NCBI GenBank assembly: GCA_009692465.1
Contig: SHZD01000002.1
Location: 1,284-65,283, forward strand
Origin: Myxococcales bacterium
GTDB taxonomy: Bacteria; Myxococcota_A; UBA9042
Reading direction: 5' to 3'
Length of the DNA: 64,000 nt
Part shown: positions 17,779 to 64,000 of the stretch, piece after piece
Layout of the letters: each line of letters begins with the position of its first letter
Numbering within the stretch: position 1 is the first letter of the stretch
Made by a program: the position numbers and the translations under genes
Notes under the pieces: model-generated
Database searches by the model: none
Told to the model about the DNA's origin: nothing
Seen by the model: the letters and a program-made list of their open reading frames with translations, nothing else

Positions 17779-20700
17779 CTAACCACCACAGCCAGGCAAC
17801 GGAATATGGGTGCAACTGCCGTTAAAGGTGTTGCAGAAGTCCTGGGTGCATGGGTTCTTGTCGTCGCATTCGACCGCGGACTTGCACACCGGCTTGGGGT
17901 TGCAGCCCGGAATTTTCTGGTGGGCGCACTTGCTCTGCAGCAAGTCGCAGAAGTCGACAGTGCACGAGTTAGCGTCATCGCAGTCGGTCTGCAACTTGCA
18001 CTGTGGGTTGGGATTGCAGCCGGCAATGGGGGTGTAAATGCAGTTGCCGCTAAAGGTGTTGCAAGTGTCGAAGGTGCAACTGTTCTTGTCGTCGCACTCG
18101 GTGTTGACCTTGCATTGGGCGCCACAATTGCCGATTTTTTGGTAGACGCAGCCGACCAGCGGCAGGCACGCATCCACAGTGCAAGCGTCGTTGTCGTTGC
18201 AGGTTGCCACCTTGCCCGAGCACACGCCGTTGGCACAGGCGTCGCCGGTGGTGCAGGCGCTGTTATCGTCACAGCTACCGCCGCTCGCCGGTTTGACCCC
18301 GCACAGGCCTAGCACGCACGCTGGGGTCAGGCACGCCATTGCGCTCGACTTGCACTCGCTATCGATTTTGCACTTGTTGCCACAGCTGGGCAGGTTGGTG
18401 AATTGGCACTTGCCGGTCAGGGTCACGCACACGTCCACGGTACAGGCGTCCGAATCCGTGCAGGCCACCGCGGGACCGCCGACGCACACCCCGACCTTGC
18501 AGGTGTCGCCCTGGGTGCACAAGTTGGGGTCGTCGCATTTGGCGCCGTCAACGACCACGCTGAACACGCACTTGGCGGTTTTGGCGTCGCAACTATCCTT
18601 GGTACACGGATTTTTGTCGTCACAGATCAACGCGACTCCAGCCTGGCAGGCGCCGCCCTTGCACACATCGCCGCTGGTACACAGGCTGCCATCGTCACAA
18701 ACCGAGCCACCATTGTTGAATTGGCAGATGCCAGCCGCGCACTTGTCGACGGTGCACACATTGGCGTCGTTGCAGTCGGTGGTGGCCTTGCAGGTGGTTC
18801 CACAGCCGGCGATCGCGGTGTGACTGCAAGCGCCGGAAGCGGGATCGCACTTGTCGGCGGTGCAGTCGTTGTTATCATTGCAGTTCTTGGCGGTGCCGCC
18901 GCATTGGCCCTTGGCGCAGATATCGGCGCTGGTGCACAAGCTTTTGTCGTCACAGGCGCTGCCGTTGTTGCCCAAATTGTGGGTGCACTTGCCGTTTTCC
19001 TTGTTGCACAAATCCACCGTGCACGGGTTGGTGTCGTCGCACCCGACTTTGGTGCCGCCACACACGCCAGCGCTGCAGACGTCGCTGCCGGTACACAGAT
19101 CGCCGTCGTTGCAAGCCGCGCCGGTCAGTGCCTTGTTTTGACACAGCTTAGCCACGCAGGCGGGTTGAAAACAGACGTTCTTGGCGCCGCAATCCGCGTC
19201 AGTGGCACAGTTGGCTCCGCATTTGGGAATGCCGGTGAAAGCGCACTTGCCCGTGACCACGGAACAAGCATCGACCGTGCATGGATCGTTGTCAAAACAG
19301 GCAATTGCGGTGCCAGCGCAGCTGGCTGCCTTGCAGGTATCCCCTTGGGTGCAGCCATTGCCGTCGCTACACCCAGCGCCGTCCTGGGCGGCCAGCGCCG
19401 CGCACTTGCCGGTCGTTTTGTTGCAACTGTCGATCGTGCAAGGGTTTTTATCGTCGCAGACCACGGCTTTGCCGACGCCGCACAGGCCTTGCGCGCACAC
19501 TTCGCCGACCGTGCAGCCGTTGCCATCGTCGCACAGGCCACCACTGGCGTTGGCAACCGCACAGGTGCCCACGTTGCATGTGTTCTTCGTGCATGGATTT
19601 TTGTCGTCGCAATCGCCGTCCGCTTTGCAGTCACTGCCACAGCCCGCAATCGGCGTCGCCACACACTTGCCGGTGCCCTTGTCGCAACTGTCTGCGGTGC
19701 AAGCATTGTTGTCGTTGCAGGTCACTGCGCCGGTGCCGCTGCACATGCCCAGCTTGCAGGCGTCGCCCAGCGAACACAGGTTGCCGTCGTCACACGGAGT
19801 ATTGGTGGCCAGTGGGCTGGCGAGACAGGCGCCGTTGCCCTTGTCGCACGTGTCGAGCGTGCACGGATTCTTGTCGTCGCAAACCACTGTTTTACCTTTG
19901 CATACACCTGCTTGCGCTTCGACGGCACAGGCGTCACCACTGGTGCAGGCGTTGCCATCGCTGCATGCCCCGCCCGCTTGTGGTTTCTGCTGGCACAGGC
20001 CTTGTACGCAACTGTCGGTGGTGCATGGATTCTTGTCGCTGCAGTCGGCGGCAGTCTTGCAAGCGTCGCCGCAGTTGGGGATGTCCTTGAAACTACACTT
20101 GCCGCCCGCACAGGCATCGAGCGTACACGGGTTGGCGTCCGTGCATGGCAAGGCCGAGCCCGCGCATTTTCCGGTGACGCAGCTGTCTTTTTCGGTGCAG
20201 GCGTCTTTGTCCGTGCAAGCCGCGCCATTGGCCAGCGCGATGGCGGCGCATTTGCCGGTAGTTTTGTCGCAACTGTCCGTGGTGCAAGGATTGCCGTCGT
20301 CGCATACCGCGGCAGCGCCCGCCACGCATACGCCGACTTTGCACTGATCCGAGAGTGTGCATAAGTTAGCGTCTTCGCAAGCAGAACCGTCCGCGGCATT
20401 GGCGACTACACACTTGCCGGTGGCCTTGACGCAGCTGTCGATGGTGCACGGATTGCCGTCGTTGCAGATCTGGGCGCTACCAGCGACGCATTTGCCCGCC
20501 GCACAGCTGTCGGCCGCAGTGCACAAGTCGCCGTCGTCGCACGGGCCGTCTTTGGCGGCGTTGACGCACTTGCTTTTTTCGCAACTATCAGCTGTGCAAG
20601 GGTTTTTGTCGTCACAGGGGCTGGCGTCTTTGCAGTTGCCACCGCAGCCGGCGATCGGGTCCGAAGTGCAAGCGCCAGTTTGCAGAGCGCAGGTGTCTAA

Positions 20701-51817: not shown

Positions 51818-51972
51818 CCTACCGTCGGGCAGGAATCTTGCCGCGACTGCCCGTGTTCTGTCGCCCGCGGTCTTGCGCGGACTCAACGCTAGCCTAAATT
51901 ACGCGCCCTGCGCGCGGTAACCAGTGCCGAGCAGATTGTAGAAACACAGCAAATTAGTTGGAGAATGGCCCG

Positions 51973-54624
51973 ATGGCAAAGAGCAAAGCACCGATTCCGC
52001 CACCGCCCAGCGCTGAGGCGCAGCAGGCTTCCCCACCGCCGCCAGACGCCCCCGCATTGCCGCCCCAAGGGCAAGAAGCTGGGCCGCCATCGACCAATTT
52101 ATTAGCATTAACACTGGCTTTACTTGCCGTTGGCGTCGGCGTCTCCATCTATCTCGTCCGCCACAAATTGCACGTCCTACTCGATCCGGGCTACATGTCG
52201 AGCTGCAATCTGGGCGGCGCGATCAACTGCGACAAGGTCAACATGTCCGGCATGTCCGAGTTGTTCGGCCTGCCGATCAGCTTGTACGCCATCCCCACCT
52301 ATGTGGCCCAAATTTATTTGGTCGCCACCGCCATGCGCGCAGGCAGTGGCGGCGTCGATGCGGCCACCCGCCGCCGCGGGCTGGACATTGCCGCCGGCCT
52401 TGGCTTATTGGCCAGCGTATTTTCACTGTATTTAGCCTTGTATAGCTCGATTCGGGTGGAAGCCTACTGCCTGTATTGCATCTCGCTGTACGTCGTCAAT
52501 TTTGGTTCAACCGCCTTATTGCTGGCTGCCGGATCCAAAACCGTGGGCACGGCGGTGGCCAATTGCCTCAGTCTTCTCAAGAGCTTTGAGCAACCCGTGT
52601 TGACTTCGGTGTTGGTCGCCGGCATCGGCATGGGCTGCGCGTGGCTGGGCTACGACCACACCAAATCGGCGATGGAGCACAGCTACAAGGACTGCCTCGA
52701 CTGCCAAATGGACTCGAACTTGCCCAAGTGCAAGACGATCAAGTGTGGCAACGCCGCCGCTCCGGTCACCGTCGACGCGGCTGCCTCTGCAGCCGCCAGT
52801 GCGGCCGCCGCGAGCCAAGCCGGTGCCCAAACCAACCAAGGAGCCGCGACGGCCGGCATCGCCCCAGTCCAAGCGGGGCAGGCGATCCCAAGCGGTGCCG
52901 CGGCGGTCGGCATGGATGGTTCCGAGTGCGGCAAGACTTACGGCGTGTTGACCAAAGAAGACGGGTGGACGATCTACAATCCGTGCTTTGATGAAGAGGA
53001 CTTGCGCGATACGATTGGCCCCAAAGACGCCAAGGTCACGGTGGTCAAGTACTCCGACTTTGAGTGTCCGTATTGCAAGTACTTAGCGATGACCATGGAA
53101 CCGGTCAAGACCAAGTTTAAGGATAAAGTTCGCTTTATTATGAAGCACTTTCCGATGAATCCGACCTGCAATCGCTATATGCAGGGCTACGACAAGCACC
53201 CCAATGCCTGCAATGCCCACGCCACCGGTCTGTGTGCTGGCCGCCAGAATAAGTTCTGGGAAATGCACGACAAGTTGTACGCCAATCAACCCAGCTTGGA
53301 TCCAGCGGCCAACCGCAAAGCGGCTGAAGAATTGGGCTTGGACATGGCCAAATACGACGCTTGCATTGCAGATCCGTCGATTTGGCAGAAATTCAACAAG
53401 GATATCGATGCTGCGGTACGCGCGGGCATCAACGGTGCGCCGCGAACCTACATCAACGGAATGTTGGTCACCGGCTCGGCAACCACCCAAATTTTGGAAT
53501 ATATGGTCCAAAAGGCGCTGGATGACCCGCGGCCGGCTTGGGTCCGTTTCGAGCAAGACAAGCTCAAGCAAGCCCAATTGGCCCCTAAACCCGACGGCAC
53601 TCACATGATCGCCGCCAAGACGGCCAAAGGCGCGTTCTATATTGATCCCTATGAAGCGTCGATTGCCAAAGATGGGCGCGCGGTCAGCATTGCCGACGTC
53701 GATCCGGCGATGGCTTCGTGGGTCGAAGCCGAGCAAGCGTGCAAGCAGGCCGGCAAGCGCTTGTGCAGCGAAGAGGAGTGGGTGTCGGCCTGTTCGGGCG
53801 TGCCCGCGATCGACAACAACACCAATCAGCAGTTTGCCGACGACGACGTCGAGGGCAATATGTATCCGTATGGCACGTTTTATGAGGCCGGCAACTGCGT
53901 CGATCAAGAGGACAAGTACAAGGGCAAATACGTCAAGACTGGCACTAAGGACAAATGTCGCACCCCGGCAGGTATTTTCGATCTTGCTGGCAACATTGGC
54001 GAATGGACCGGCGCCACCAAAGAAACCGCTGGCTTGATGGGCGGGCACAACAATTCGGGCGAACGGGCGGCGTGCAATCAAGGCTCACGCAGCTTTGGGG
54101 TCGGCAATCGCAATCAGACTACCGGCTTTCGCTGTTGTGCTGATGCCGACGTTGCCCAAAAGAACGTTGCCCCGTCGGACCTCAAGGGTAGCGACACCGA
54201 CTTGGTCGGCAAGCCGGTGCCCGCCTTCACCGGCAAAGACAGCAACGGCATCGTCATTGATTCCGATGGCTTCAAGGGCAAAGTCACGCTCGTTAATTTC
54301 TTTGCTTCGTGGTGCGGACCGTGCAAGAAGGAGTTCCCCGAACTGGTCACCTTGTGGAAAGAGCACAAAAGCAAAGGATTTCAAGTCGTTAGTATTGGCG
54401 TCGACCGCGAAGAGGGGCGCTCGCTGGAATTCGCCAATGGTTTTGAATGTCCGTGGGGCGTCATCGCCGATCCGGAGTCTGAGCTGATGGGTAAATTCAA
54501 CGTCTATTCGATGCCGGCGACCTTCATTGTCGACCGCAAGGGTGTGATTCAGTTCTACGACACTGGCTTTAAGCCCGAAGAGCAACTCCAAAAATTGCGC
54601 GACGCCATCACCAAACAGCTGTAA
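51973..54624 (+). CDS. VKOR - DsbA - FGE/sulfatase-modifying-factor-like - TlpA four-domain fusion
   Basis: VKOR: SCNLGGAINCDKV and CLYC in TM helices; DsbA: YSDFECPYC, HFP, GAP; FGE-like: KRLCSEEEW, YPYG, FDLAGNIGEW, GFRCC; TlpA: NFFASWCGPC, MPATFIVD. Confidence 0.88.
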   Translation: MAKSKAPIPPPPSAEAQQASPPPPDAPALPPQGQEAGPPSTNLLALTLALLAVGVGVSIYLVRHKLHVLLDPGYMSSCNLGGAINCDKVNMSGMSELFGLPISLYAIPTYVAQIYLVATAMRAGSGGVDAATRRRGLDIAAGLGLLASVFSLYLALYSSIRVEAYCLYCISLYVVNFGSTALLLAAGSKTVGTAVANCLSLLKSFEQPVLTSVLVAGIGMGCAWLGYDHTKSAMEHSYKDCLDCQMDSNLPKCKTIKCGNAAAPVTVDAAASAAASAAAASQAGAQTNQGAATAGIAPVQAGQAIPSGAAAVGMDGSECGKTYGVLTKEDGWTIYNPCFDEEDLRDTIGPKDAKVTVVKYSDFECPYCKYLAMTMEPVKTKFKDKVRFIMKHFPMNPTCNRYMQGYDKHPNACNAHATGLCAGRQNKFWEMHDKLYANQPSLDPAANRKAAEELGLDMAKYDACIADPSIWQKFNKDIDAAVRAGINGAPRTYINGMLVTGSATTQILEYMVQKALDDPRPAWVRFEQDKLKQAQLAPKPDGTHMIAAKTAKGAFYIDPYEASIAKDGRAVSIADVDPAMASWVEAEQACKQAGKRLCSEEEWVSACSGVPAIDNNTNQQFADDDVEGNMYPYGTFYEAGNCVDQEDKYKGKYVKTGTKDKCRTPAGIFDLAGNIGEWTGATKETAGLMGGHNNSGERAACNQGSRSFGVGNRNQTTGFRCCADADVAQKNVAPSDLKGSDTDLVGKPVPAFTGKDSNGIVIDSDGFKGKVTLVNFFASWCGPCKKEFPELVTLWKEHKSKGFQVVSIGVDREEGRSLEFANGFECPWGVIADPESELMGKFNVYSMPATFIVDRKGVIQFYDTGFKPEEQLQKLRDAITKQL

Positions 54625-54652: not shown

Positions 54653-55474
54653 GTGCGTCCGCAATCATTGCTCCTCGGCTTGCGGGACCTAGGCAAGCCG
54701 TACTGGCTGCTGATCGCCAATGCGGGGCTGCTCATCGGGTTGGCCTGCGGCTGCAGTCGAGTCGCGGCGCCCTCCCAAGTGGTGGATTGGCGATCGCTGC
54801 GGCCGGGCCTGAGCTACGCGGCTGTTTCGATCGGCATCGACAACGGCGATCACCGCGCCAGTGCCCACGTGGTCCGCTTCGATCCCAGTCGGTACGAGTT
54901 GCAAGTGGTGCTGGCCGCCGAAACTGGCGCTTCGCTCGCGCAGGCTTCTGCCTTTCGCCAAGCTGCCCACGGTCTGGTCGCCTTTAATGGAGGCTATTTT
55001 GATCACCAATGGCGGCCTTTGGGGCTGCTGGTTAGCCGTGGCGCTGAACTGTCGCCGTTGCGCAAAGTCGACCACGGCGTGTTTGCACTGGCGCGGCACG
55101 CGGCACTGGTTCGCCACGCCCGTCAATGGCTTGCCCCGCCCGACCTAGAGTTTGCGCTGGAGTGCGGGCCGCGGTTGCTGATCGGCGGCCAAGCCCCCCA
55201 TTTTCGCTCTGCTGATCGCGCCCGCCGTACTGCACTGGCACTCGATGACCGCGGTCGGGTTGTGGTCGCTGTCACTGAAGGGGTTGTAAGTCTTGCTGAG
55301 TTCGCTAATTGGCTGAGCAAACCAGCCACTGCAGGTGGGGTCGGAGCGACAGAGGCACTCAACCTCGACGGCGGTCCGTCGTCTATGTTGGAGGTGGCGG
55401 TGGACGCTACTTTTGCGCAAGTGTTGGCGCCAACCCCCGTGCCGGTCGGTGTTGCGATTGTCGAGCGCAAGTAG
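54653..55474 (+). CDS. Phosphodiester glycosidase (NAGPA/DUF2233) family lipoprotein
   Basis: FNGGYF, GPRLL, ARRTAL, ALNLDGGPSS. Confidence 0.88.
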   Translation: MRPQSLLLGLRDLGKPYWLLIANAGLLIGLACGCSRVAAPSQVVDWRSLRPGLSYAAVSIGIDNGDHRASAHVVRFDPSRYELQVVLAAETGASLAQASAFRQAAHGLVAFNGGYFDHQWRPLGLLVSRGAELSPLRKVDHGVFALARHAALVRHARQWLAPPDLEFALECGPRLLIGGQAPHFRSADRARRTALALDDRGRVVVAVTEGVVSLAEFANWLSKPATAGGVGATEALNLDGGPSSMLEVAVDATFAQVLAPTPVPVGVAIVERK

Positions 55475-55638
55475 AAGGCCCCTTTGCAACATCGGAGGAT
55501 CACATGTGTTTGATCGACGCTCTCAATTTTGGAATCGGCGGCAATTTGGTGCACACTATCAGGCTGCATTGGCGGCGCCTGCGGCCGCCAGTGCTTTCGG
55601 TCTGCGCGATTTCAGGCCGTATTTTCAAGGACTTTTTG

Positions 55639-57249
55639 ATGCTTTTCGCTCCCCAACGCCCCCTGCTGACGACGACGCGCCGAGCCGCTCGGCTGCTGGC
55701 GTTGCTCGTGCTGTTGCCGGTGACCACCCTTTTGGTCGGCACGCTGCCGGGCAACGGCGTGATCACCAGCGCGTACGCGGCCGACGAAGACAAGCCAGCG
55801 CTGGCCGTCGTCCACTTCGTCAAACGCGGCGACGCCGGCATGTTGAGCGTGCAACGCATCGAAGAATACCTGCGGCAGATGCTCGACGCCGGCGGTGCGG
55901 TCAAGATGTTGCCGGCCAAAGTCGTCGAACTGGGAAAGCCGCTGACGGGACCGGTTCGCCCGGCCGCCGCGGCCAATCTACCGGTGTCGCCTCAGGCCAA
56001 AGCTATTGAAAAAGCAGATAAACTTGTCGCTGCAGCTCGCGATATCGTCGCCGAGGGCGAGGCGCTGGCCGATGGCATCAAGCTTTTGGCGGCGGCTGTG
56101 GAGCGGTATGAGGCCAACTTTGTCGAGTTGGCTGATTTCTCTAAGTTAGTAGATGCGTACGCGCTAAACGCCCAGGCGTTGCTGATGCAAGGCGACACCA
56201 AAGGCGCCGCTGAGTGGGTAGCCCGCGCTTTGGCGATTCAGCCGACTTTTGTGGTCGATGGGCGCAAGCAAAACAAGGACCTCAAGGCCGTAGTGGACAA
56301 ATCCCGCGACGGGTTGGAAGCCAAGCCGCGCACGACCATTGCCGTCGAATCCACCCAACCCGATTCGGAGGTTTACGTCGACGGCGTCAAGATTGGCACC
56401 GCTCCGGCCACCGCCAGCGATCTGCTTGCCGGCGTTCATTTCGTTCAGGTGCGCAAGGCTGGAGCATCGCCGTGGGGCCAACAGCTACTCGCCAAAGGTA
56501 AGCCTTTGCAAACAAAGGCTATACTTCAAATGCAGGTGGCACCAGAAAACGAGATCGCCATCTCAGTGAGCCCAGACGACATCAAGGAGTTTGCCAATAA
56601 GGGCAACTTTGGCGAGAAGATCTTTAAGAATTCTGCTGCGTTGTTCGCTCGGCAAATCGCGGCGACTCACATTTTATTTGGCCTGGTCAACCGGCGCCCT
56701 AGCACCCTAGAACTACACCTTTTCGTGTTTTCCACCAAGACCAAGAAAACCTGCAGCGTTTCGCCGATTGAGTACGCAGCCAATCTCAACAACTTGCAGA
56801 TGCAGACACTGGACGCTGAAGGCAAGGTGCGTATCGCCGTCCTCAACTGCGCCACCGATGTCAGCGGCGTACCCGCCATTTATGCCAACGCTCCCCAGCC
56901 GAAAGATGAACCGGTAGCGCCGGACATCGTGCCGACCCCGCCCGATGCCGAGCCCAAGGCCGATGTCACGGACGACCCCAAACCGGAGCCCAAGCCGGAG
57001 CCGAAACCGCAGCCCAAGCCGGAACCGCGGCGCGCGGATGTGCTCAAGAAAGTTGAAAAAGACGACCCTTACAAGGACTTACTGAAGGATTCCAATGCTG
57101 ACGCCACCGATAAGCCGTTCTATACCACTTGGTGGTTTTGGACAGCCGTCGGCGTGGTGGCCGTCGGTGGTGGCGGTGCGGGCGCCTACGCGGCGACTCG
57201 CGGTGGCAATGTGGTGACCGGGTATGGTGTCAAGGTGACAGTGCCCTAG
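55639..57249 (+). CDS. Secreted PEGA-domain protein
   Basis: Signal ending AYA; VESTQPDSEVYVDG..G.AP....L.AGVHFVQVRK; C-terminal PFYTTWWFW + TM. Confidence 0.85.
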   Translation: MLFAPQRPLLTTTRRAARLLALLVLLPVTTLLVGTLPGNGVITSAYAADEDKPALAVVHFVKRGDAGMLSVQRIEEYLRQMLDAGGAVKMLPAKVVELGKPLTGPVRPAAAANLPVSPQAKAIEKADKLVAAARDIVAEGEALADGIKLLAAAVERYEANFVELADFSKLVDAYALNAQALLMQGDTKGAAEWVARALAIQPTFVVDGRKQNKDLKAVVDKSRDGLEAKPRTTIAVESTQPDSEVYVDGVKIGTAPATASDLLAGVHFVQVRKAGASPWGQQLLAKGKPLQTKAILQMQVAPENEIAISVSPDDIKEFANKGNFGEKIFKNSAALFARQIAATHILFGLVNRRPSTLELHLFVFSTKTKKTCSVSPIEYAANLNNLQMQTLDAEGKVRIAVLNCATDVSGVPAIYANAPQPKDEPVAPDIVPTPPDAEPKADVTDDPKPEPKPEPKPQPKPEPRRADVLKKVEKDDPYKDLLKDSNADATDKPFYTTWWFWTAVGVVAVGGGGAGAYAATRGGNVVTGYGVKVTVP

Positions 57250-57382
57250 AGAGCCGATCAAATTAGATTTGCTCGGCGTCTCCTTGCTTGTTTCGTGGGT
57301 CGCGAGCGTGCGCCCGAGGCTTGCCGCCGCTTCGGTTTTGTTCGGGAATTTATTGAGTGTCGGCGATAGTTGGTCGCGTCTG
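57246..57382 (+). mobile_element. Element E copy 3 (degenerate, shorter)
   Basis: CTAGAGAGCCGATCAAATTAGATTTGCTCGGCGTC matches the left end of E. Confidence 0.75.
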
Positions 57383-57462
57383 CGAAGCGGTCGACCAAGG
57401 CGTACGTAACCGGCGCCAAATTTGGACTGCGTGTGCGTATGATCAGGGGCGGAGTGACACGA

Positions 57463-59283
57463 ATGGAACAATTGGCACACTCTTGGGCAAGGCCGTTCGC
57501 GCCGAGTACTTTGCGGTGGTTAACCGTTGCTCGGCACTGGTCAAAGTGCGCCGCGCTCGTCGGCGCGGTTGCGTGTGCTGGCGAGGTCAAACCGCCGACG
57601 ACGGTCGAATTGGCCGTTCGCAAACCGGTTGCCAGCGAGGACAACCCGTTCGGCTTGGCCGGCGACAAGTTTGTGGCCATTACTGCGGAGGTCCCCGGGG
57701 TTCTGGACGGCACCTACCGCTCGGTCAAACCCTACGCCCCAGGCGCCGCGCTCGATTTGGGTTGTACCTCTGCAACCGCATGTCCTGGTATCCCTTACGC
57801 AACTGGTGTCCAGGTCCGCGTAGAGTTATGGTCCAGCGACAAAGGTGCGCCCGCGCCGCCCGTTGTCGGCCGCGGTCGTTCGGTGCCGTTTGAGCAAGCC
57901 AAGGGCGGCGCCACCAAGAAACTCATGCCGTACGTCACCCGCACCAATCGCTTTGCCCCCGCCGAGTCCGACGCCGGAAGCAAGGCGCTCATTGCGGCCA
58001 AAGCCGGCGCCGCCACTGCGACTCAACCCGGGCCGGATGGCAATGTCTATATTATCGGCGGCGCCGAGCCATTACCAAACAAAAACAATGCATTTGATAT
58101 CGCCAGCTATACCAATTTTTCCGACGCCATCGCCAAGTATTCGCCCAATTTGCGCCAAGTCGGTATGGTCAGCGACCTAGGCCCAGACTACCGCCTAAAG
58201 GTGGCGCGCGCGTTTCATTCCGCGGCAGCCAGCCGCAACATCGTCGCCATTGTCGGCGGTTACATCGCGGGTCAAAACAGCGCCAAATTCACCAACTCCA
58301 TTGAGTACATTGAAAGCAACGACAAGGTGCGCACAAGCATTGGCAAGTCGCCCGATTTGGTCTTCGCCCGCGCCGGCGCGAGCGTCGTGTGCCTTTTTGA
58401 CGACGACGAGTATTTTCTGATTCTGGCCGGCAAAGGCGAAATCGACTGCACCAAGGAGGCCTACTGCGCCGGTAACACTTGGGAATTATGGCATAAAACT
58501 GCAGGAAACCTGGCTCAAGGACAACTCAAGGATCCGCGCTGGAATCACGCGGTCGTCAAAGTACCAAGTGCCGATGGCGGCTATGTCATGCTCATCGGTG
58601 GCGAAAATGACGTCGGCGTGCTGCAGACCTTTGAAGTAATTCAGTATTCTAAACAAGGGTTTGTGTCCAAAAAGGGTCAGGCCTGCAAGCCCGAAGCCAA
58701 AGGCTACGGCACCTGCGAACCACCGACTTCTTCGACATTTTACTGGGAACCGCTTACTCAGGGGCTTCCCGTTGCCCGCACGCTGCCCGGCGCGTTGTTT
58801 TCAACCGTCCCCCGTGGTACGGCCAACTTCGACTATCGCTACGTGTACATCGTGGGTGGCTTTGAAGACACCGCACACACCAAACCGTTGGCCCGTATGG
58901 ATGTTTTCAACATTGGCAAAGGCAGTTATCTCAATCCAGATGGTTACCCGATGCAGGTCGCGCGCGGCGCGCCGATGGTAGCGCTGGTGCCCCATGGGCC
59001 CACCGAAGGGCAAGTCTTGATTGCCGGCGGCAGTAAGTCGGACACCCAGCATCTGAACAGCGCGGAATTCGTGTTTGTTCGCGTGGTTGATCGCACAGTG
59101 TCGCCGCCGACCACGTCGATCGAAATCGCCCCAGTGGACAATGATCTGCCCGACGGCGTGCGCGTCTTGGGCAACGCGGTGGCTCTCAACACCGGGCACG
59201 TCCTCGTGGTCGGCGGCGTCGGCACCGGTGCTGGCAATGCCCTTGAAGTTCGCAACGAGATTGCCTTATGGAATCCTTTTTGA
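57463..59283 (+). CDS. Kelch-repeat (beta-propeller) lipoprotein
   Basis: Lipobox AVAC; repeated V(Y/L)I.GG and (A/P)R..H motifs. Confidence 0.85.
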   Translation: MEQLAHSWARPFAPSTLRWLTVARHWSKCAALVGAVACAGEVKPPTTVELAVRKPVASEDNPFGLAGDKFVAITAEVPGVLDGTYRSVKPYAPGAALDLGCTSATACPGIPYATGVQVRVELWSSDKGAPAPPVVGRGRSVPFEQAKGGATKKLMPYVTRTNRFAPAESDAGSKALIAAKAGAATATQPGPDGNVYIIGGAEPLPNKNNAFDIASYTNFSDAIAKYSPNLRQVGMVSDLGPDYRLKVARAFHSAAASRNIVAIVGGYIAGQNSAKFTNSIEYIESNDKVRTSIGKSPDLVFARAGASVVCLFDDDEYFLILAGKGEIDCTKEAYCAGNTWELWHKTAGNLAQGQLKDPRWNHAVVKVPSADGGYVMLIGGENDVGVLQTFEVIQYSKQGFVSKKGQACKPEAKGYGTCEPPTSSTFYWEPLTQGLPVARTLPGALFSTVPRGTANFDYRYVYIVGGFEDTAHTKPLARMDVFNIGKGSYLNPDGYPMQVARGAPMVALVPHGPTEGQVLIAGGSKSDTQHLNSAEFVFVRVVDRTVSPPTTSIEIAPVDNDLPDGVRVLGNAVALNTGHVLVVGGVGTGAGNALEVRNEIALWNPF

Positions 59284-59406
59284 CAGGTTCGGTGCCGGTT
59301 GAGCCCAAGTCGAGTCTGCAAATCGCTCGGTGTGATGCGGTTCAGACCGCTAATGTGGTGTCGCCCGGGCCGGGGTAGTTCGGTTCGGTCAGCCGTTGTG
59401 CCTTCA

Positions 59407-59448
59407 CAATTGCACGTTGACGACGGTTCAATTGCACTTTGACGACGG
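59407..59448 (+). repeat. 20-bp direct repeat at 22-bp period, CAATTGCAC(G/T)TTGACGACGG
   Basis: Read directly; the second copy contains a TTGACG -35-like hexamer. Confidence 0.8.
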
Positions 59449-59608
59449 CGCCCGCTCGGGCACACTATGGGTCCCGCGCCGCTGGCGACAGCTGCGTAGC
59501 TAAGGCCGCCTCCGAGCGCTCAGGTTATCTCGTACAAGTTACCCCCGCAGTGCGCTTGCCCTGCCACCCATCCTAGAGCCGATCGGCCACCCTGGAGAGC
59601 AATCCACC

Positions 59609-62600
59609 TTGCAGCGCTTGCCTACACCTCACCGGCAGAGCACAGCGCGCGCTCCAGCCTATTCGTGTCCGAAACCATTACATGCCTTTGTCGGAAAACT
59701 ATTTGCAATTGTTGCTACTATTTGCGCTTTGGTTGCCGCGCCAGACGCTCATGCTGTCGTCATTGGCACCTATCCGCAAACGCCGACGGAATTCAAAGTT
59801 CATGGCAAGGCCGTCCAACTGGGGGCGTCGCTTGTCACCAACTTCACCGACTACCGCTTCAACGACAAGCTCAAGCCGGAATCCGCCGACACCGTCAAGA
59901 TTGCTCAAAAGTTACCGCAAGATGCGGTGATCATTGCCGCCTACTTGTATTGGGGCGGCTCCCAATTGGCCGCCGAGGCCGACAGCAACGCCACATTTAC
60001 GGTAGCCGACGGATTTTCATCCAATGTCGAGGCTGACGTCTGTCAGGCCCGCACGGATACCGCGGGCAGTGGCACCCACTTTTTGTGTCGCAAAGACGTG
60101 ACAGCGCTCATCGCCGCCCACCCCGGCAGCGATTTTTGGAACGGCAATTACAAAGTCGGCGACGTCAGCGCCAAAGTGGCGGCCATCAAGTTCAAATCGC
60201 CTAACACCAATGATTGCGGGACCAAGCCCACGGGCGTGCCCGAAGATGTGTGCTGCGCGCCCAGCGACGGCTTCTGTCAGGCCCGCCATGCCTCGTGGTC
60301 GCTGGTCATGGTTTACGACACCAAGTTCAGCGAATCCACCCAGCGTGACATTTTCCTGTACGACGGCTTCGTTCTGCTCGACGAGACTCCGACCAGCACT
60401 GGCCAGATTTTCTTTACCATCAACAACTTCTTGGTCGGCGACCCGCCAGACGCCCAATTGGCCTACTACGCCATGGAAGGTGACAAGCAATTGGGCAATC
60501 CGGCGCAGGACCCGCCGGGCACCGCCGATAGCCCACCGTGTGGAACATGTTTTGATTTCGTGCAGTTTAACGGCACCAAGCTGACGGGCGGCGCCGGTAA
60601 CAACGACGTTAACAACATCATGAACTCGACGCCAGAAGCGGGTATCGATCTGGATTCATTCGATATCTCGCCACTGGTCAAGACCGGTGACACGTCGGCG
60701 ACGTTTCTGGTGTCGTCCGGCAATGGCTCACTGGCCGACAACACCCAGCAGGTCAACAACGCCGGGGCCGGCGAGATGTTTCTGTACGGCTATACGTTGC
60801 TGCAGATCAATCGCAAAGCCCCAAATTTCAAGAACATTATCAGCGGGTTGTCGGTCAATGCCAGCGAGGCTTCCGCTGGCGACGTGCTCACTTTTACGCT
60901 CGACCTGCTCAACAACGGCCAACTTGACGCCGAAAACAGCGTAGCCAAGCTCGGGTCCTTTCCGCCGCCCGGCCTCGACTATGTGGCCAATTCAACAACT
61001 GTCGACGGCGTGGCCCAGCCCGATGTCGGTGGCACGTCACCGCTCGCGACCGGCCTCAATTTGGGCAACATCACCAATACAGCTGGCGGCAAATCGGTCC
61101 GCAAGATCACTTTCAAATTCAAAGTGAAATCGCCACCGGGCGTCAATGAGGTCACCGCATTTTCGGTGCTGGACTACCAGTACAAGGGCAGCGCCGCCTC
61201 CACCACCATCTACAAGGACCAGTACGTCGGCAACCCCGTGACGGTCAAGATCGTTGCGCCCAAGCTGGCGACGCCCAAGCTGACCGCCCAACCTACTGCC
61301 GCCGCACCGGGAGCGAATATCACCTTCAATCTGGAACTGGAAAATATCGGCACCAACCCAATTCTGGTCAATTTTGACTGGGCCGCGCCGCCGGAAATGC
61401 AGTTGGGATTGACGCTCACCTGCCCAGCCAGCGTGCTGATTGGAACCACCAAGCTCAGCGTGTCCCAAACGGCTGGGGTCAATGGCACCGGCGCGGTCGC
61501 AGCGGTCAACTTGCAACTGGCTCCAGGGCAAAAAGTGCTGTGCAACTGGGAGGCTGCGGTGCTCAGCGCTCCGCAATTGACGGCCAAGGGCGTCAACCCG
61601 ATCAACAACCACGCCGTTCTGTCCCAAGCCAGCGTGACCGCAGACGGTAAGCTGCTGGTGTCGGACGATCCGGCCCAATCTGGGGCCACTGATCCGACCA
61701 AAGTGCTGCTATCGGCGCTGTCGGTTTTTACGACGTCGAGCAAGTCGGTCACCGACCTGAGTCCGTCGACCCCGCTGTTGGCCGGTGATCAGGTGCAATT
61801 TACGCTGACGCTGGTCAATACCGGACCCGTTTCAGGCACCGTAACCGTGACCGATCCATTGCCCTCGGCGCTCGAATTCGTGTCGACGAGCAGTCCAGAG
61901 TTGGTGCTCAACGGCGGAACGCTGCAAGCCAGTAATGTCGTGATTGCTGCCGGCGCGACTAAGAACCTGATTTTTATTGCTAAAATCAAGGATTCGACCC
62001 CGCCCGGTACGTCGTTCGCCAATGTGGCGACCATCAGCCCCAACGACGGCGGCCCGCCCAAAGTGATTCAAACCCTGCCGCAAACCGTGCCAGTCGGCCC
62101 CGATCTGGCCACTTCGACCAAGAGCGCGGTGGACACCAATGGCGGTGACTTAGAACCGGGCGATTCGCTGCTCTACACGCTGACGTTTAAGAATTCGGGC
62201 AAAGAAGACACGGGCACTTTTCAAGTTGTCGATCCGATCGACCCTAATATCGTTGAAGTTACCGGCATTACCGCTGGCGGTGTGCTCGATCAGGCTAGCA
62301 AGCAAATCTCCTGGAGTGTGCCGCCGATCGCCGCGGGTGGTCAGGTGCTCCTGCAGTTCACCGCCAAAATCGGGGCGCTGGTGCCGACAGGGACGACTAT
62401 CACCAATCAGGCGACCGCCAGTGGCGGCGAACTGTCCAAGCCGACTGCGGTTTCGGCCTCGATCAAAGTCCAGGCGCAGCCCAATATCTCGGTGTTCACC
62501 AATTCCGTGACGTCGTCGGCTGGCAGTGCCTTTAATCCAGGCGACACCGTGACCTACGTGTATACCGTGCAAAATACCGGTAGCGGTGCGGTGCAAAAGG

Positions 62601-64000
62601 CCCTGCTTTCGGCCGGTTTTGATGCCAGCCTGCAGATTGTCTCGACCACAGGTGGTGGCCAAATAACCGGTCAGACGATCAACTGGGACTTGGCGACGCT
62701 GGCTAAGGGGCAACCTGCGGTAACGATTACTGTCGTTGCCAAGCTGGCAGCCGTTGTCGCCCAAAACAAGCTAGTGTCGAACCAAGCGCAGTTGGTCGGC
62801 GAAGGGCTTGGGGCTCCGGCGCTCTCGGACGACTCAAAACTGCCAGGAAAAACTGATCCAACAGTGTTTACGGTCACTTCTGCGCCCACTTTGGTCACTT
62901 CGCAAAAGTCGTTTGTCGATGCTAATGGCGGTCAAGTGCAGGGCGGCGACCAAGTGACGTTCAAGGTGACGGTGGCCAACACCGGCAACGCCGCAGCGTC
63001 GGCTGTGGTGGTGACCGACACCCTGGCTGCGCAATTGACCCAGGTCGTGGTTCAAGGGGGCACTTTTGACGCCGTGACCCGCATCGTCAAGTGGAACGCG
63101 CTGGCGACGGTGGTGCCCGGCGACAAGCCGATCGAGCTGACGGTGGTCGCGGTAGTCGACAAAGCGACTCCGTCGGGGACCTTGGTCAGCAACTTCGCGG
63201 ACTTGACCTTTACCGAAACGCCCAAGGTCGCCAAAACCAACACCGTGAGCTTCACGGTGGTCAATCTGCCGGACTTTGGCGCCTCGACCAAAGCGGTCAG
63301 CGCGGCTGTAATTGGCGCGGGCGAGGCTGTCACCTGGACCATCACCGTCGTCAACTCCGGCAATCAGGCTGGCAACAACATCATCGTGACCGATCCGTTG
63401 CCGTCCCAAGTCGAGGGATTGGTATTGTCCGATGGCGGCGCCGTCGATGCCACCGGCAAGGCGACCTTTACCTTGGCGTCATTGGCCGCAGGCGCGAGTA
63501 AGTCGCTGACGATCACCGCTAAGCTCAAGAAACCACTCGACAAGGACACCAAAGTTTGCAATCAGGCGAGTGTCGTTTCGACCGAAAACACCGCCCCGTC
63601 GCCGACCAATCCGCCCGGCGCGGTGCCCAAGCCTGGTGGCGAACCGACCTGTTTTGTTGTCAACTCCGCGGCCAAACTGACTGTTCATAAAGACGTCTTT
63701 GACAGCAAGTCTGGGGTGCAACTCAATGGCGGGGTGGCCAAGCCCAAGCAAGTGTTGCGTTGGCAGATCAAGGTCCAAAATAGCGGCAATGCGATCGCCA
63801 AAGATGTGGTGATTCAGGACCTTATTTCGACCAACCTGAGCGATATCGTGCCTTTGGACGGCGGCACTTTGGACGCAACGGGCAAGATTTTGACTTGGCC
63901 CGTGGTGCCGACACTGGGAACCGGGGCCGCCGACCAAATTGTGGTGCGGTTTGACGCCACGGTGCCCGCTGGGGCCGACAATGGGCTGGCCATTGCCAAT
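59609..64000 (+). CDS. Giant secreted DUF11-repeat surface protein (runs off the window; absent from the ORF track)
   Basis: TTG 59609 after GGAG; signal ending PDAHA; AAYLYWGGS; repeated K.V.D.NGG...PGD.L.YT..V.N.G...V.DPLP units; same frame at the window end. Confidence 0.88.
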   Translation, partial: MQRLPTPHRQSTARAPAYSCPKPLHAFVGKLFAIVATICALVAAPDAHAVVIGTYPQTPTEFKVHGKAVQLGASLVTNFTDYRFNDKLKPESADTVKIAQKLPQDAVIIAAYLYWGGSQLAAEADSNATFTVADGFSSNVEADVCQARTDTAGSGTHFLCRKDVTALIAAHPGSDFWNGNYKVGDVSAKVAAIKFKSPNTNDCGTKPTGVPEDVCCAPSDGFCQARHASWSLVMVYDTKFSESTQRDIFLYDGFVLLDETPTSTGQIFFTINNFLVGDPPDAQLAYYAMEGDKQLGNPAQDPPGTADSPPCGTCFDFVQFNGTKLTGGAGNNDVNNIMNSTPEAGIDLDSFDISPLVKTGDTSATFLVSSGNGSLADNTQQVNNAGAGEMFLYGYTLLQINRKAPNFKNIISGLSVNASEASAGDVLTFTLDLLNNGQLDAENSVAKLGSFPPPGLDYVANSTTVDGVAQPDVGGTSPLATGLNLGNITNTAGGKSVRKITFKFKVKSPPGVNEVTAFSVLDYQYKGSAASTTIYKDQYVGNPVTVKIVAPKLATPKLTAQPTAAAPGANITFNLELENIGTNPILVNFDWAAPPEMQLGLTLTCPASVLIGTTKLSVSQTAGVNGTGAVAAVNLQLAPGQKVLCNWEAAVLSAPQLTAKGVNPINNHAVLSQASVTADGKLLVSDDPAQSGATDPTKVLLSALSVFTTSSKSVTDLSPSTPLLAGDQVQFTLTLVNTGPVSGTVTVTDPLPSALEFVSTSSPELVLNGGTLQASNVVIAAGATKNLIFIAKIKDSTPPGTSFANVATISPNDGGPPKVIQTLPQTVPVGPDLATSTKSAVDTNGGDLEPGDSLLYTLTFKNSGKEDTGTFQVVDPIDPNIVEVTGITAGGVLDQASKQISWSVPPIAAGGQVLLQFTAKIGALVPTGTTITNQATASGGELSKPTAVSASIKVQAQPNISVFTNSVTSSAGSAFNPGDTVTYVYTVQNTGSGAVQKALLSAGFDASLQIVSTTGGGQITGQTINWDLATLAKGQPAVTITVVAKLAAVVAQNKLVSNQAQLVGEGLGAPALSDDSKLPGKTDPTVFTVTSAPTLVTSQKSFVDANGGQVQGGDQVTFKVTVANTGNAAASAVVVTDTLAAQLTQVVVQGGTFDAVTRIVKWNALATVVPGDKPIELTVVAVVDKATPSGTLVSNFADLTFTETPKVAKTNTVSFTVVNLPDFGASTKAVSAAVIGAGEAVTWTITVVNSGNQAGNNIIVTDPLPSQVEGLVLSDGGAVDATGKATFTLASLAAGASKSLTITAKLKKPLDKDTKVCNQASVVSTENTAPSPTNPPGAVPKPGGEPTCFVVNSAAKLTVHKDVFDSKSGVQLNGGVAKPKQVLRWQIKVQNSGNAIAKDVVIQDLISTNLSDIVPLDGGTLDATGKILTWPVVPTLGTGAADQIVVRFDATVPAGADNGLAIAN

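Follow-up and report, generated by a model that had tools for sequence, protein, structure and literature searches.

VKOR-DsbA fusions are a known route of disulfide formation in bacteria that lack DsbB, and the repair of wrong disulfides in these bacteria, where DsbC is missing, is a largely unsettled matter. The structure of a cyanobacterial VKOR-Trx fusion has reportedly been solved. In Bacillus, BdbD and ResA belong to separate, opposing pathways, with BdbC and CcdA as their membrane partners. The Scs operon comprises ScsB, ScsC and ScsD; the ScsC-like and ScsD-like proteins have the DsbD-like ScsB as their partner in the membrane. According to a preprint, 9.3% of the VKOR proteins in InterPro are fused to a protein belonging to the thioredoxin superfamily (bioRxiv 10.64898/2026.03.05.709764). 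In M. tuberculosis, VKOR is reported to be the main periplasmic oxidant, acting with a DsbA-like partner (PMC3781833; PMC3792642), and a mutation of its active site is described as suppressing the loss of the thioredoxin-like CcsX, on which cytochrome c maturation depends (PMC3781833). This suppression shows that an oxidase and a reductase oppose each other on one client.

In this work we focused on a gene of a Myxococcales bacterium whose product carries VKOR, DsbA-like, FGE-like and TlpA/ResA-like domains, in this order, on one polypeptide. It lies within a 64,000-nucleotide stretch of DNA, the whole of which is referred to here as the window. The fusion is the joined form of a two-gene unit, composed of a secreted TlpA-like protein and a VKOR-DsbA-FGE protein, that is widespread in Myxococcota, and the family bears on the question of how wrong disulfides are corrected.

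Gene organisation and occurrence

The open reading frame (51958/51973..54624, forward strand) has an ATG at 51973 with a GGAG about 10 nt upstream, and all four families, VKOR, DsbA-like, FGE-sulfatase and AhpC-TSA/Redoxin, score above their Pfam gathering cut-offs. The motifs listed by an earlier, sequence-only reading of this DNA (the VKOR loop cysteines, CLYC, CPYC, CGPC and the linker cluster CLDC..C..C) were all located by translation (Table 1).

Table 1. Positions in the window of the four-domain gene, its domains and motifs, and the gene that follows
Feature	Position	Strand	Remarks
Four-domain gene	51973..54624	+	883 aa plus stop codon; translation checked
N-terminal tail, Pro-rich	51973..52098	+	residues 1-42; predicted cytoplasmic, disordered
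VKOR domain	52099..52653	+	residues 43-227; predicted four-helix core and fifth helix into periplasm
VKOR loop Cys	C78 at 52204-06, C86 at 52228-30	+	translation
VKOR CLYC	52468-52479	+	residues 166-169
Periplasmic linker, low-complexity	52654..52932	+	residues 228-320
Linker Cys cluster CLDC..C..C	52693-52746	+	translation
DsbA-like domain	52933..53532	+	residues 321-520
DsbA-like CPYC	53065-53076	+	residues 365-368
FGE/C-type-lectin-fold domain	53590..54153	+	residues 540-727, ~188 aa, compact
TlpA/ResA/DsbE-like thioredoxin domain	54196..54621	+	residues 742-883
TlpA-like CGPC	54313-54324	+	residues 781-784, within WCGPCKKEFP
NAGPA (phosphodiester glycosidase) gene	54653..55474	+	Pfam; 28 nt after fusion stop

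The architecture, which the sequence-only reading did not recognise, turned out to be common in Myxococcota. At least 61 of 301 sampled genomes contain a strong match to the fusion family, all 24 other genomes of the window's taxonomic family have a multi-domain match, and the Atlas holds architecture clusters of 70 and 174 members, the nearest simpler architectures being two-domain VKOR-DsbA clusters. No description of the four-part architecture was found in the literature searched, and it appears to be uncharacterised in print.

All 16 short-form (VKOR-DsbA-FGE) genes of the phylum survey, representing 15 loci, served as the sample of the split form. An adjacent TlpA-like ORF on the same strand was present at 15 of the 15 loci, upstream of 15 genes and downstream of one, and the split TlpA-like proteins whose complete sequence was read, four in number, each have their own signal peptide. 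Among the genomes with the split form are closed or nearly closed ones of the same phylum, with 9.4 Mb on one contig and 8.1 Mb on two. The TlpA-like module is thus an obligate partner, either fused or encoded by the neighbouring gene at every split locus. Trees of the TlpA-like domains contained three separate groups and did not show the split and fused modules as closest kin.

No terminator-like site was found in the gap between the fusion and the NAGPA gene, and the gene order fusion-NAGPA-PEGA-Kelch-DUF11 giant was the same at 12 of 12 loci, within the window's taxonomic family only. In one distant homologue (L107) the next gene carries a MopE-type metal-binding motif. Neither DsbB nor a match to the DsbC-type dimerisation domain (PF10411; E. 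coli was the only control giving a signal) was found in the 92%-complete genome. It encodes one DsbD_TM-thioredoxin protein, away from the fusion, and DsbD_TM is present in 40 of 41 relatives. No DsbD or CcdA gene was seen beside the fusion or the split pairs, for which 21 of 39 flanking ORFs were scanned and the flanks vary. The genome also holds 18 DsbA-like matches, 13 Redoxin matches and two more VKOR fusions, so that the fusion protein need not be a general oxidase.

The coupling to the window's Cys-rich proteins that the sequence-only reading put forward is not supported as a specific link. These proteins are encoded 30-49 kb from the fusion gene, Dicty_CTDC repeats occur in 41 of 41 related genomes, including 10 without the fusion, and among genomes of families other than that of the window the load of repeats did not differ between those with and those without it.

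Features of the individual domains

The VKOR domain scores 79.8 bits with PF07884, the cut-off of which is 27.5, and the match extends over residues 47-181 and profile positions 3-131 of 134. Its loop pattern C-x7-C-x5-S (C78/C86/S92) and its CxxC align with human VKORC1 and VKORL1 at the same spacing. To assess conservation, 69 full-length members of the family, chosen from 121 homologous proteins, were aligned; C78 is kept in 68, C86, C166 and C169 in all 69, and S92 in at least 90%. The model has helices at residues 41-70, 102-122, 130-162, 167-186 and 209-246 (pLDDT > 90); the predicted loop between helices 2 and 3 (122-137) is basic, and hydropathy is consistent with a four-helix core followed by a fifth helix. 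Residues 1-32 of the N-terminal tail, Pro-rich by composition, have a pLDDT < 50.

The additional cysteine cluster that had been noticed in the linker is indeed present in the window's protein, but it is lineage-specific (C241 in 5, C244 in 2, C253 in 3 and C258 in 1 of the 69 sequences) and lies in a segment that is disordered in the model (247-314, with pLDDT < 50 at 247-250 and 260-314). The linker measures 47-156 aa among 12 sampled relatives.

The DsbA-like domain matches Thioredoxin_4 (PF13462, 70.1 bits) and DSBA (PF01323, 67.8 bits) over residues 347-511. C365 and C368, as well as C399, C413, C421 and C464, are present in all 69 sequences; the cis-proline is P490, and across the family the CxxC site reads C-[PGAQS]-[YF]-C and the cis-proline loop G-[AT]-P. 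Structure comparison (VIA) gave Z 20-21.7 over 170-175 residues to 3gyk, BdbD, alpha-DsbA2, ScsC and BcfH, and the best sequence matches among solved structures were copper-tolerance proteins of the ScsC type (E ~1e-7). CPYC-type sites are found in oxidases as well as in isomerases. The score for the Rcas_1661 thioredoxin-like (seleno)lipoprotein family NF041057 (78.1 bits) was below the equivalog cut-off of 190, and the in-frame TGA of relatives is no more than a stop codon there. Judged by their sequences, the VKOR and DsbA-like parts have every feature of a disulfide-generating pair, which bears out the earlier suggestion of an oxidase pair at that level.

For the FGE-like domain (model pLDDT 95.5) the FGE-sulfatase match of Pfam reaches 38.1 bits against 23.3, at residues 576-682, and covers only profile positions 90-192 of 255. 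Eight cysteines, C590, C598, C607, C642, C662, C701, C721 and C722, the last two forming a vicinal CC, are invariant (69/69), and the pattern is held in 82 of 91 FGE-like domains, including tandem, kinase-linked and stand-alone contexts. The fold compares with TvpA, CalU17, pFGE, Mtd, EgtB, PorK and PvdO at Z 14-17 (pFGE 16.0 by VIA), and with FGE and pFGE at E 5e-8 by Foldseek; by sequence, its nearest relative with a solved structure is pFGE, which is non-catalytic (E 6e-4). The Cu(I)-binding catalytic Cys pair of FGE, two closely spaced cysteines of the C-terminal segment, is absent, C701 being the only cysteine between G690 and G718. By these sequence criteria the domain looks non-catalytic.

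The TlpA-like domain matches AhpC-TSA (83.3 bits) and Redoxin (81.5 bits) at residues 745-874. C781 and C784 are found in 68 of the 69 sequences, the single miss being a gap in a protein without the domain, and the M-P of the cis-proline site (M847-P848) is kept in the family. It matches DsbE (PDB 3gl3) at E 3e-22, and fold comparison gave Z 23.5 with an rmsd of 1.3 A. Its WCGPCKKEFP aligns with WCEPCKKEFP of ResA; WCGPC is also the classical thioredoxin motif. The equivalog and subfamily cut-offs of NCBIfam were not reached for ResA (84.4 of 170 bits), DsbE (75.2 of 123), TlpA (54.4 of 230) or StoA (56.6 of 210). Its structural neighbours are mixed, with the reductants ResA and CcmG on one side and the oxidants M. 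tuberculosis DsbE/DsbF and SdbA on the other, so that a reducing direction for this domain is a guess.

Predicted docking and possible mechanisms

The split TlpA-like protein was modelled in complex with the FGE-bearing chain, from which VKOR was left out. The ipSAE was 0.76 (0.77, 0.73 and 0.76 in the single runs), the best of three controls giving 0.00; of solved complexes, 116 of 157 attained that mark, and of mismatched pairs 2 of 215. The runs had at least 85% of their contacts in common, with a partner pLDDT of at least 86. All confident contacts of chain 1 fall within the FGE-like domain, at residues ~575-582, 643, 651-659, 683 and 706-715, and on the side of the TlpA-like module the predicted ligand is made up of its N-terminal tail together with one face; the CxxC and cis-proline of the module are outside the predicted contacts. 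As both alignments contain fused relatives, the prediction may reflect intramolecular packing in the fused forms. As a single in-silico prediction with custom alignments, it supports binding rather than proving it. The FGE fold had earlier been proposed to be a non-catalytic binder of substrates; the missing Cys pair and the predicted binding agree with the first part of this proposal, but the modelled partner is the TlpA-like module and not a substrate.

In our best reading, to which we give an even chance, the protein is a quinone-linked disulfide oxidase (VKOR to DsbA-like) combined with a lectin-fold adaptor and an obligate second thiol-disulfide site. It would be an inner-membrane protein with a cytoplasmic N-terminus, the five helices predicted by the model forming a VKOR-type quinone reductase and the remaining chain being periplasmic. 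By homology, VKOR would reduce a membrane quinone, make a disulfide de novo and, by way of its two loop cysteines, pass it on to the DsbA-like domain, which would then oxidise exported proteins. Based on the missing Cys pair and the complex prediction, the FGE-like domain may act as a non-enzymatic adaptor that holds the TlpA-like module, and the latter could provide a second site of thiol-disulfide exchange beside the oxidase. The direction at this site would most probably be reducing, either to proofread and isomerise disulfides that are wrong or to hold certain cysteines in the reduced state, and the module might be recharged by a DsbD-type protein encoded elsewhere in the genome. Isomerisation by this domain is a role that we infer. 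A reductant placed on the same chain as an oxidase would be prone to futile cycling, which speaks against the best reading.

A more far-reaching form of this reading, which we consider doubtful, is a self-contained oxidative-folding machine of Myxococcota, a counterpart of Ero1 and PDI within a single unit. The quinone-driven VKOR would charge the DsbA-like domain, the lectin-fold adaptor would clamp the N-terminal tail of the ResA-type module, the oxidising and the reducing CxxC would face the same client, and the FGE fold would be re-used as a peptide-binding docking module. If true, disulfide formation and proofreading would be available together for a very large disulfide-rich secretome in bacteria without DsbB and DsbC.

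Alternatively, the TlpA-like module may itself be kept oxidised by VKOR or the DsbA-like domain and serve as a second disulfide donor for another range of substrates, or as a relay, with the FGE-like domain as scaffold. Oxidants of the TlpA/CcmG fold are among its neighbours (M. tuberculosis DsbF, Z 19.5, and DsbE, 19.0; SdbA, 19.2), the linkage to an oxidase by fusion or operon would make sense with electrons running in a single direction, towards quinone, and the lack of a linked DsbD/CcdA gene fits as well. The WCGPC with KKEFP resembles the reductant ResA, however, and the predicted complex, modelled without VKOR, seats the module on the FGE-like and not on the DsbA-like domain; we consider such a dual oxidase or relay possible, although not probable.

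We consider it unlikely that the TlpA-like module is a reductase protecting one class of client cysteines at the very place of action of the oxidase, for instance those in the haem-binding CxxCH of apocytochromes c or in copper sites. This is the job of ResA/CcsX or TlpA elsewhere, and the ResA-like motif, the reported suppression of CcsX loss in M. tuberculosis (PMC3781833), the sequence similarity of the DsbA-like domain to ScsC-type proteins and the MopE-type gene after one distant homologue would all fit. On the other hand, no conserved gene for cytochrome c maturation or copper adjoins the fusion or the split pairs, other Redoxin-family proteins of the genome could serve those pathways, and oxidases of the BdbD/DsbA type match the DsbA-like domain structurally as well as ScsC does.

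EgtB/OvoA-type sulfoxide synthases have an N-terminal DinB-like iron-binding domain ahead of their FGE-fold domain. It is very unlikely that the FGE-like domain is itself an enzyme, be it an oxidase or a modifying one, of the FGE/EgtB/PvdO superfamily, with the flanking thioredoxin folds serving its redox cycle and electrons passing to quinone. In favour are a fold common to true enzymes (FGE, EgtB, OvsA, SenA, ToxD), the eight invariant cysteines with their vicinal CC and numerous invariant acidic and aromatic residues. A Cu(I)-binding pair cannot form with one cysteine in that segment, the Pfam match is partial, and the 8-Cys pattern, recurring in such varied contexts, fits structural disulfides. 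Furthermore, Pfam found no iron-binding N-terminal domain of the EgtB/OvoA type, its place being taken by the DsbA-like domain, the closest sequence relative is non-catalytic, and only 3 sulfatase-family ORFs of the genome stand against 12 canonical FGE-sulfatase domains, full-length and located elsewhere in it.

Finally, the fragmented source genome (294 contigs) and the separate TlpA-like gene of other lineages might suggest an assembly or gene-calling artefact joining neighbouring genes, but this is refuted by the recurrence of the fusion in independent assemblies (all four families in about 109 of 120 homologues among the matches listed, from many assemblies) and by contigs across the junctions from other samples (one spanning 52213-54324 with 0 differences, and one of another study, 94% identical, spanning 51830-54129); the reading frame is uninterrupted, simple read-through would not yield the domain order of the fusion since the split TlpA-like gene lies mostly upstream, and the four-part architecture first noticed in the sequence is one real polypeptide.

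Comparison with described systems

The bacterial VKOR-Trx fusions and two-domain 'VKOR/DsbA family proteins' have the same VKOR loop cysteines and CxxC, the fifth helix and a periplasmic CxxC domain of thioredoxin fold; the family described here has in addition the 8-Cys FGE-fold domain and the ResA/TlpA-like module, conserved in fused form or as a neighbouring gene. The cyanobacterial VKOR-Trx structure was absent among the best 50 structural matches listed.

M. tuberculosis likewise combines a VKOR (Rv2968c) with a DsbA-like partner of the Thioredoxin_4 type (Rv2969c), opposed by a ResA-like thioredoxin, but there the proteins are separate, an FGE-fold domain is lacking and the reductase has no genetic or physical tie to the oxidase. 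Bacillus subtilis BdbD is among the top matches by structure for the DsbA-like domain (Z 21.0), as is B. subtilis ResA for the C-terminal domain (Z ~21, 27-28% identity, CKKEFP common to both); unlike in Bacillus, the two folds stand here on one chain behind VKOR. The Scs copper-tolerance system resembles the fusion in having a DsbA-like protein with a CPYC-type site (ScsC, Z ~20) alongside a TlpA-like partner and a redox protein of the membrane. It differs in its membrane partner, which here is VKOR, expected to drain electrons to quinone, instead of the DsbD_TM/DsbD-like ScsB, which supplies electrons, and the fusion has no copper gene context.

By analogy only, PDI may be comparable in function, with two CxxC sites of thioredoxin fold around a non-catalytic domain. 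In contrast to PDI and DsbC, the middle domain is unrelated in sequence, the genome yielded no DsbC-type dimerisation domain, and the protein is predicted to be membrane-anchored with its own disulfide generator. The FGE-like domain has the fold of pFGE (SUMF2), Mtd, TvpA and PorK (Z 15-17, rmsd 2.6-2.9 A over 150-164 residues), and pFGE, its best sequence match, also lacks the catalytic Cys pair; compared with pFGE, the domain is shorter (~188 aa), has eight invariant cysteines, is placed between two domains of thioredoxin fold and has a predicted TlpA-like ligand. What is new relative to these systems is that fusion or gene adjacency constantly joins an oxidase with a thioredoxin of the ResA type by way of an FGE/lectin-fold domain, a combination not met with in the literature searched; if the docking is true, protein docking inside a redox machine would be an added use for non-catalytic domains of the FGE fold.

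The fused gene, its domains and its active sites

The sequence-only reading had described a VKOR-DsbA-FGE-TlpA fusion encoded as one chain, and this was confirmed by the uninterrupted open reading frame (ORF), by a Pfam scan reporting four families, each above its gathering cut-off, and by the motifs. The loop cysteines C78/C86, CLYC (166-169), CPYC (365-368) and CGPC (781-784) are where they had been placed, and the linker cluster CLDC..C..C was found by translation at residues 241-258. A GGAG lies approximately 10 nt 5' of the ATG, and a scan for promoters and terminators gave counts no better than chance. The nearest NCBIfam entries for the C-terminal domain are ResA, DsbE and TlpA, with scores under every curated cut-off. 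The coordinates are collected in the table.

Coordinates of the fused gene, its domains and other features (window nucleotides unless residues or a fetched locus, L, are indicated)
Feature	Position	Strand	Description
Cys-rich protein	2767-5196	+	809 aa, 12.4% Cys, Somatomedin_B and weak Dicty_CTDC match
AhpC-TSA/Redoxin protein	8683-9642	-	318 aa
Tandem DsbA-like protein	10234-11721	+	495 aa, two tandem DsbA-like (Thioredoxin_4) domains
Cys-rich protein	17779-22242	-	1487 aa, 14.6% Cys, 20 Dicty_CTDC stretches
Four-domain fusion	51958/51973..54624	+	883 residues from ATG at 51973
VKOR	residues 47-181		Pfam E 2.6e-22
Thioredoxin_4/DSBA	residues 347-511		Pfam E 3e-19 and 1e-18
FGE-sulfatase	residues 576-682		Pfam E 1.8e-9, covering only profile positions 90-192 of 255
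AhpC-TSA/Redoxin	residues 745-874		Pfam E 2e-23 and 7e-23
Fusion-NAGPA-PEGA-Kelch-DUF11 gene order	54653-64000	+	also in L095-L106; NAGPA, phosphodiester glycosidase
VKOR fusion, source genome	L002 559-2109	-	516 aa, contig C19
VKOR fusion, source genome	L003 1405-2838	+	477 aa, contig C167
Variant with two DsbA-like domains	L111 7049-9988		979 aa, VKOR-DsbA-DsbA-FGE-TlpA
Second copy of four-domain protein	L112 4255-7716		related genome
Second copy of four-domain protein	L113 10059-13970		related genome
Second copy of four-domain protein	L114 9944-13633		related genome
Duplicated split system	L122 1533-6712		TlpA-like, VKOR-DsbA-FGE, VKOR-DsbA-FGE, TlpA-like

The closest database protein has 882 aa, with 97% identity over 100% of the query. 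By our count from the table of listed homologues, all four families are present in approximately 109 of 120 (30-97% identity, 729-1016 aa, from assemblies at NCBI, ENA, JGI and Logan); the fusion is not an assembly artefact. VKOR is missing from 10 listed proteins of 495-731 aa, whose contigs measure no more than 4.2 kb in nine cases and 9.6 kb in the tenth, and the redoxin domain is missing from one (P0121, 656 aa). These homologues come from Myxococcota, Myxococcales or 'Deltaproteobacteria' MAGs and one Binatia MAG, under the names 'redoxin family protein', 'thioredoxin domain-containing protein' or 'vitamin K epoxide reductase family protein'. Assembly support over the domain junctions was obtained from public runs of freshwater and lake metagenomes, in which contigs from other samples together bridge VKOR/DsbA, DsbA/FGE and FGE/TlpA. 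Positions 52213-54324 are spanned with 0 differences by a contig from another sample of the same study and positions 51830-54129 at approximately 94% identity by a contig from a different study; a third study contains 100%-identical contig pieces, for example over 53150-53768.

Conservation was evaluated in an alignment of 69 full-length relatives picked out of 121 homologous proteins. The four VKOR cysteines, the DsbA-like and TlpA-like CxxC motifs, four more cysteines in the DsbA-like domain and eight in the FGE-like domain each occur in 68-69 of them. Across the family the DsbA-like active site reads C-[PGAQS]-[YF]-C with a cis-Pro loop G-[AT]-P, and the TlpA-like site S-W-C-G-[PSN]-C-[KR]-[KR]-[EQ]-x-P with an M-P loop. 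The linker cysteines are kept in only 1-5 of the 69 relatives, so the cluster is a local peculiarity rather than a general feature of the fusion.

The full-length AlphaFold2 model has a mean pLDDT of 87.4 and a pTM of 0.64, with residues 1-32 and 247-314 disordered. Its helices (41-70, 102-122, 130-162, 167-186, 191-204 and 209-246) comprise the four VKOR core helices and a fifth one, with the basic 122-137 loop predicted inside; the loop cysteines, CLYC and everything beyond residue ~228 are predicted on the periplasmic side. The C-x7-C-x5-S spacing and the CxxC of the VKOR part align with human VKORC1 and VKORL1. Among the matches listed, the structural neighbours of the DsbA-like domain are 3gyk (Z 21.7), BdbD (21.0), Wolbachia alpha-DsbA2 (20.8), ScsC proteins (~20) and corynebacterial MdbA/TsdA (~19), and a search with the full-length model gave single-domain matches only.

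Fused and split forms in Myxococcota

A multi-domain match was found in all 24 other genomes of the window's family (best E <= 1e-190; some matches are truncated by the end of a contig) and in 6 of 16 genomes from other families of the class, the other 10 having single-domain-level matches only. An even sample of the phylum gave matches at E <= 1e-60 in at least 61 of 301 genomes, a floor value because a stricter first look was used in this search. The matches are of two kinds. The first covers residues ~347-880 in ORFs of ~750-1230 aa, mostly 800-870, and corresponds to four-domain proteins. The second covers residues ~349-725 in ORFs of ~620-900 aa and one of 1650 (16 rows, 15 genomes), and all 15 loci of this short kind were taken into a neighbourhood comparison. 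Each of their VKOR-DsbA-FGE genes terminates directly after a GFRCC motif, and each is adjoined by a same-strand TlpA-like ORF matching residues ~716-881 (E 1e-17 to 1e-30). This ORF lies upstream of 15 short-form genes; the exception is the second gene of a tandem pair, which has it downstream. SWCGPC and a separate signal peptide were found in each of the four split TlpA-like proteins that were read from end to end. Selenocysteine was considered and rejected, '1 TGA inside' being reported for nine short-form matches: in the five frames inspected the TGA is the stop codon directly after GFRCC. The NCBIfam (seleno)lipoprotein match of the fusion is weak.

Fused and split forms occur together in several genomes of the phylum sample, and the corresponding Atlas clusters (174 members for the short form, 70 for the long) are both mostly from Myxococcota. 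From this linkage in fetched loci and Atlas clusters, the four modules form one conserved unit, which in the window's lineage is a single chain. In a quick tree of TlpA-like domains, with two long-branch paralogues inside, the split clade has a support of 95 and its joint node with the fused domains 85. A careful tree without the two paralogue rows gave three separate groups: fused (98/91), split (88/86) and paralogues (96/83). Such trees, resolving three separate groups only, appear compatible with one conserved unit. A related-locus search in genome contigs was dominated by the generic ASWCGPC motif, the family members among its matches being L015-L017 only.

Within the window's family the fusion is followed by NAGPA, PEGA, Kelch and DUF11 giant genes, in this order, at 12 of 12 loci, down to 46% identity; the order is missing from five other-family loci and three paralogue loci (0/8). 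The flanks of the split pairs are variable, and a scan of 21 of their 39 ORFs revealed neither a CcdA/DsbD gene nor a conserved third gene. In the duplicated split system the gene order of the second pair is the domain order of the fusion. The second copies of the four-domain protein lie in all three loci directly 3' of a gene of 1150-1300 aa encoding a Ser/Thr kinase, STAND NTPase and TPR. Atlas neighbours of the entry P0001 provided leads only: SCO1/SenC with FGE-sulfatase (473 aa, Verrucomicrobiota, score 0.77), VKOR with DsbA and rhodanese (Acidobacteriota), and CcmF with AhpC-TSA (Chloroflexota).

The FGE-like domain and its predicted partner

Folded alone (residues 530-735), the FGE-like domain reached a pLDDT of 95.5 and adopted the FGE/C-type-lectin fold, with structural Z values of 17.0 for TvpA, 16.3 for CalU17, 16.0 for pFGE, 15.5 for Mtd, 15.4 for EgtB, 15.3 for PorK and 14.1 for PvdO, and 5-7 for ordinary C-type lectins. 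pFGE and FGE were matched by Foldseek at E 5e-8, and of the solved structures the non-catalytic pFGE is its closest relative by sequence (E 6e-4). The segment corresponding to the two copper-binding cysteines of FGE holds a single Cys. A true FGE serving sulfatases was rejected: the catalytic Cys pair is missing, and a sulfatase-maturing role is unlikely because elsewhere in the source genome there are 12 full-length canonical FGE-sulfatase domains, for no more than three sulfatase-family ORFs. This genome has one full copy only of the present subtype.

A search against 1.84 billion representatives gave 3405 relatives of this domain at E <= 1e-3, of which 47 reach E <= 1e-30. In a Pfam scan of the best 52 of the 3405, 19 were VKOR+DsbA+FGE+Redoxin proteins, 10 were VKOR+DsbA+FGE proteins with their C-terminus at the FGE-like domain, and 13 had this domain alone or in tandem; one was a PEGA-domain protein kinase, another a LamG/TPR protein of 2865 aa, and the remainder were fragments or had no further assignments. 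Where these best 52 cover the domain well, 82 of 91 copies keep the eight-Cys pattern, which fits four structural disulfides. Since all eight are nearly always present, co-occurrence carries no information on their pairing.

The split TlpA-like protein of L119 was modelled with the DsbA-FGE part of its neighbour, each chain entered as an alignment. The ipSAE was 0.76 (runs 0.77, 0.73 and 0.76), the best of three controls reaching 0.00. Among 157 solved complexes this mark was attained by 116, and among 215 mismatched pairs by 2; the docking alignments, both of which include fused relatives, were not the ones used for this calibration. The runs have at least 85% of contacts in common, with a partner pLDDT of 86 or more. 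The first chain makes its confident contacts exclusively through the FGE-like domain (window numbering ~575-582, 643, 651-659, 683 and 706-715); on the partner side the N-terminal tail and the equivalents of residues 810-812 and 834-845 are involved, and the TlpA-like CxxC and cis-Pro lie outside the contacts. The model thus supports a predicted binding of the split TlpA-like protein to the FGE-like domain. No complex of FGE and TlpA folds is described among the listed solved neighbours of the FGE-like domain and the full model.

Redox context and proposed function

In the source genome (5.8 Mb, 294 contigs, 92% complete) neither DsbB nor a DsbC-type dimerisation domain was found. It has three VKOR fusions, 13 Redoxin matches, one DsbD_TM-thioredoxin protein and 18 DsbA-like (Thioredoxin_4) domain matches; DsbD_TM is present in 40 of 41 relatives. 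Some ORFs carry three DsbA-like domains in tandem, including one of ~670-690 aa on each of contigs C220, C247 and C252. The window itself has two more periplasmic thiol-redox genes, those of the tandem DsbA-like protein and the AhpC-TSA/Redoxin protein in the table. The two further VKOR fusions have an unassigned Cys-rich C-terminal part with CPHC or CSHC and a kinase gene directly upstream; a link of VKOR fusions to protein kinases is recurrent.

The extremely Cys-rich proteins to which the fusion had been tied are real, and their genes lie 30-49 kb from it. The proposed tie was not upheld. The Dicty_CTDC repeat occurs in 41 of 41 related genomes, with or without the fusion, and in 0 of 14 control genomes, at hundreds to thousands of first-look candidates per related genome. 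The median load is 306 candidates per Mb in fusion-bearing genomes (n = 31) versus 123 in the others (n = 10), a difference rejected as evidence for a link because it is phylogenetically confounded: outside the window's family the values are 142 (n = 6) and 123 (n = 10; p = 0.26).

By homology, VKOR would reduce quinone and oxidise the DsbA-like domain, which would then oxidise exported proteins. The lack of the catalytic pair, together with the predicted complex, suggests an adaptor role for the FGE-like domain, by which the TlpA-like module would be held; the site of this module may work in the reducing direction, in proofreading or protection. This direction is the least certain element; it is suggested by the ResA-like motif and by analogy with the oxidase/reductase antagonism known from M. 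tuberculosis (PMC3781833). Alternatively, the TlpA-like site may also be kept oxidised and act as a relay or as a second disulfide donor, like M. tuberculosis DsbE/DsbF (PMC3853704). We consider this rather unlikely. Among the matches listed for the C-terminal domain, the oxidising M. tuberculosis proteins DsbF (Z 19.5) and DsbE (19.0), and also SdbA (19.2), stand beside DsbE 3gl3 (Z 23.5, rmsd 1.3 Å over 140 residues), ResA (~21) and CcmG (18.8). The motif WCGPCKKEFP of this domain aligns with WCEPCKKEFP of ResA. As the fold matches both ResA/CcmG and DsbF/DsbE/SdbA, fold and motif give the family, not the direction of electron flow.

Sequence comparison and modelling together show what the four domains are and that their active sites are conserved, as well as the predicted topology and the linkage of fused and split forms. 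The earlier idea of a one-chain oxidative folding machine is plausible, and gains a better frame from the relationship of split to fused forms and from the predicted docking; an isomerase role within it would be conjectural. The fusion is a real, conserved elaboration of the VKOR-DsbA disulfide-forming system, and with its FGE-like and TlpA-like parts apparently one so far unstudied: full-text literature searches, with subscription journals outside their coverage, gave no paper in which VKOR is described with an FGE-fold domain, nor one on the four-part system. According to passages of bioRxiv 10.64898/2026.03.05.709764, fusion to a thioredoxin-superfamily member is found in 9.3% of the VKOR proteins in InterPro; fusions to other domains form a further category in that paper.
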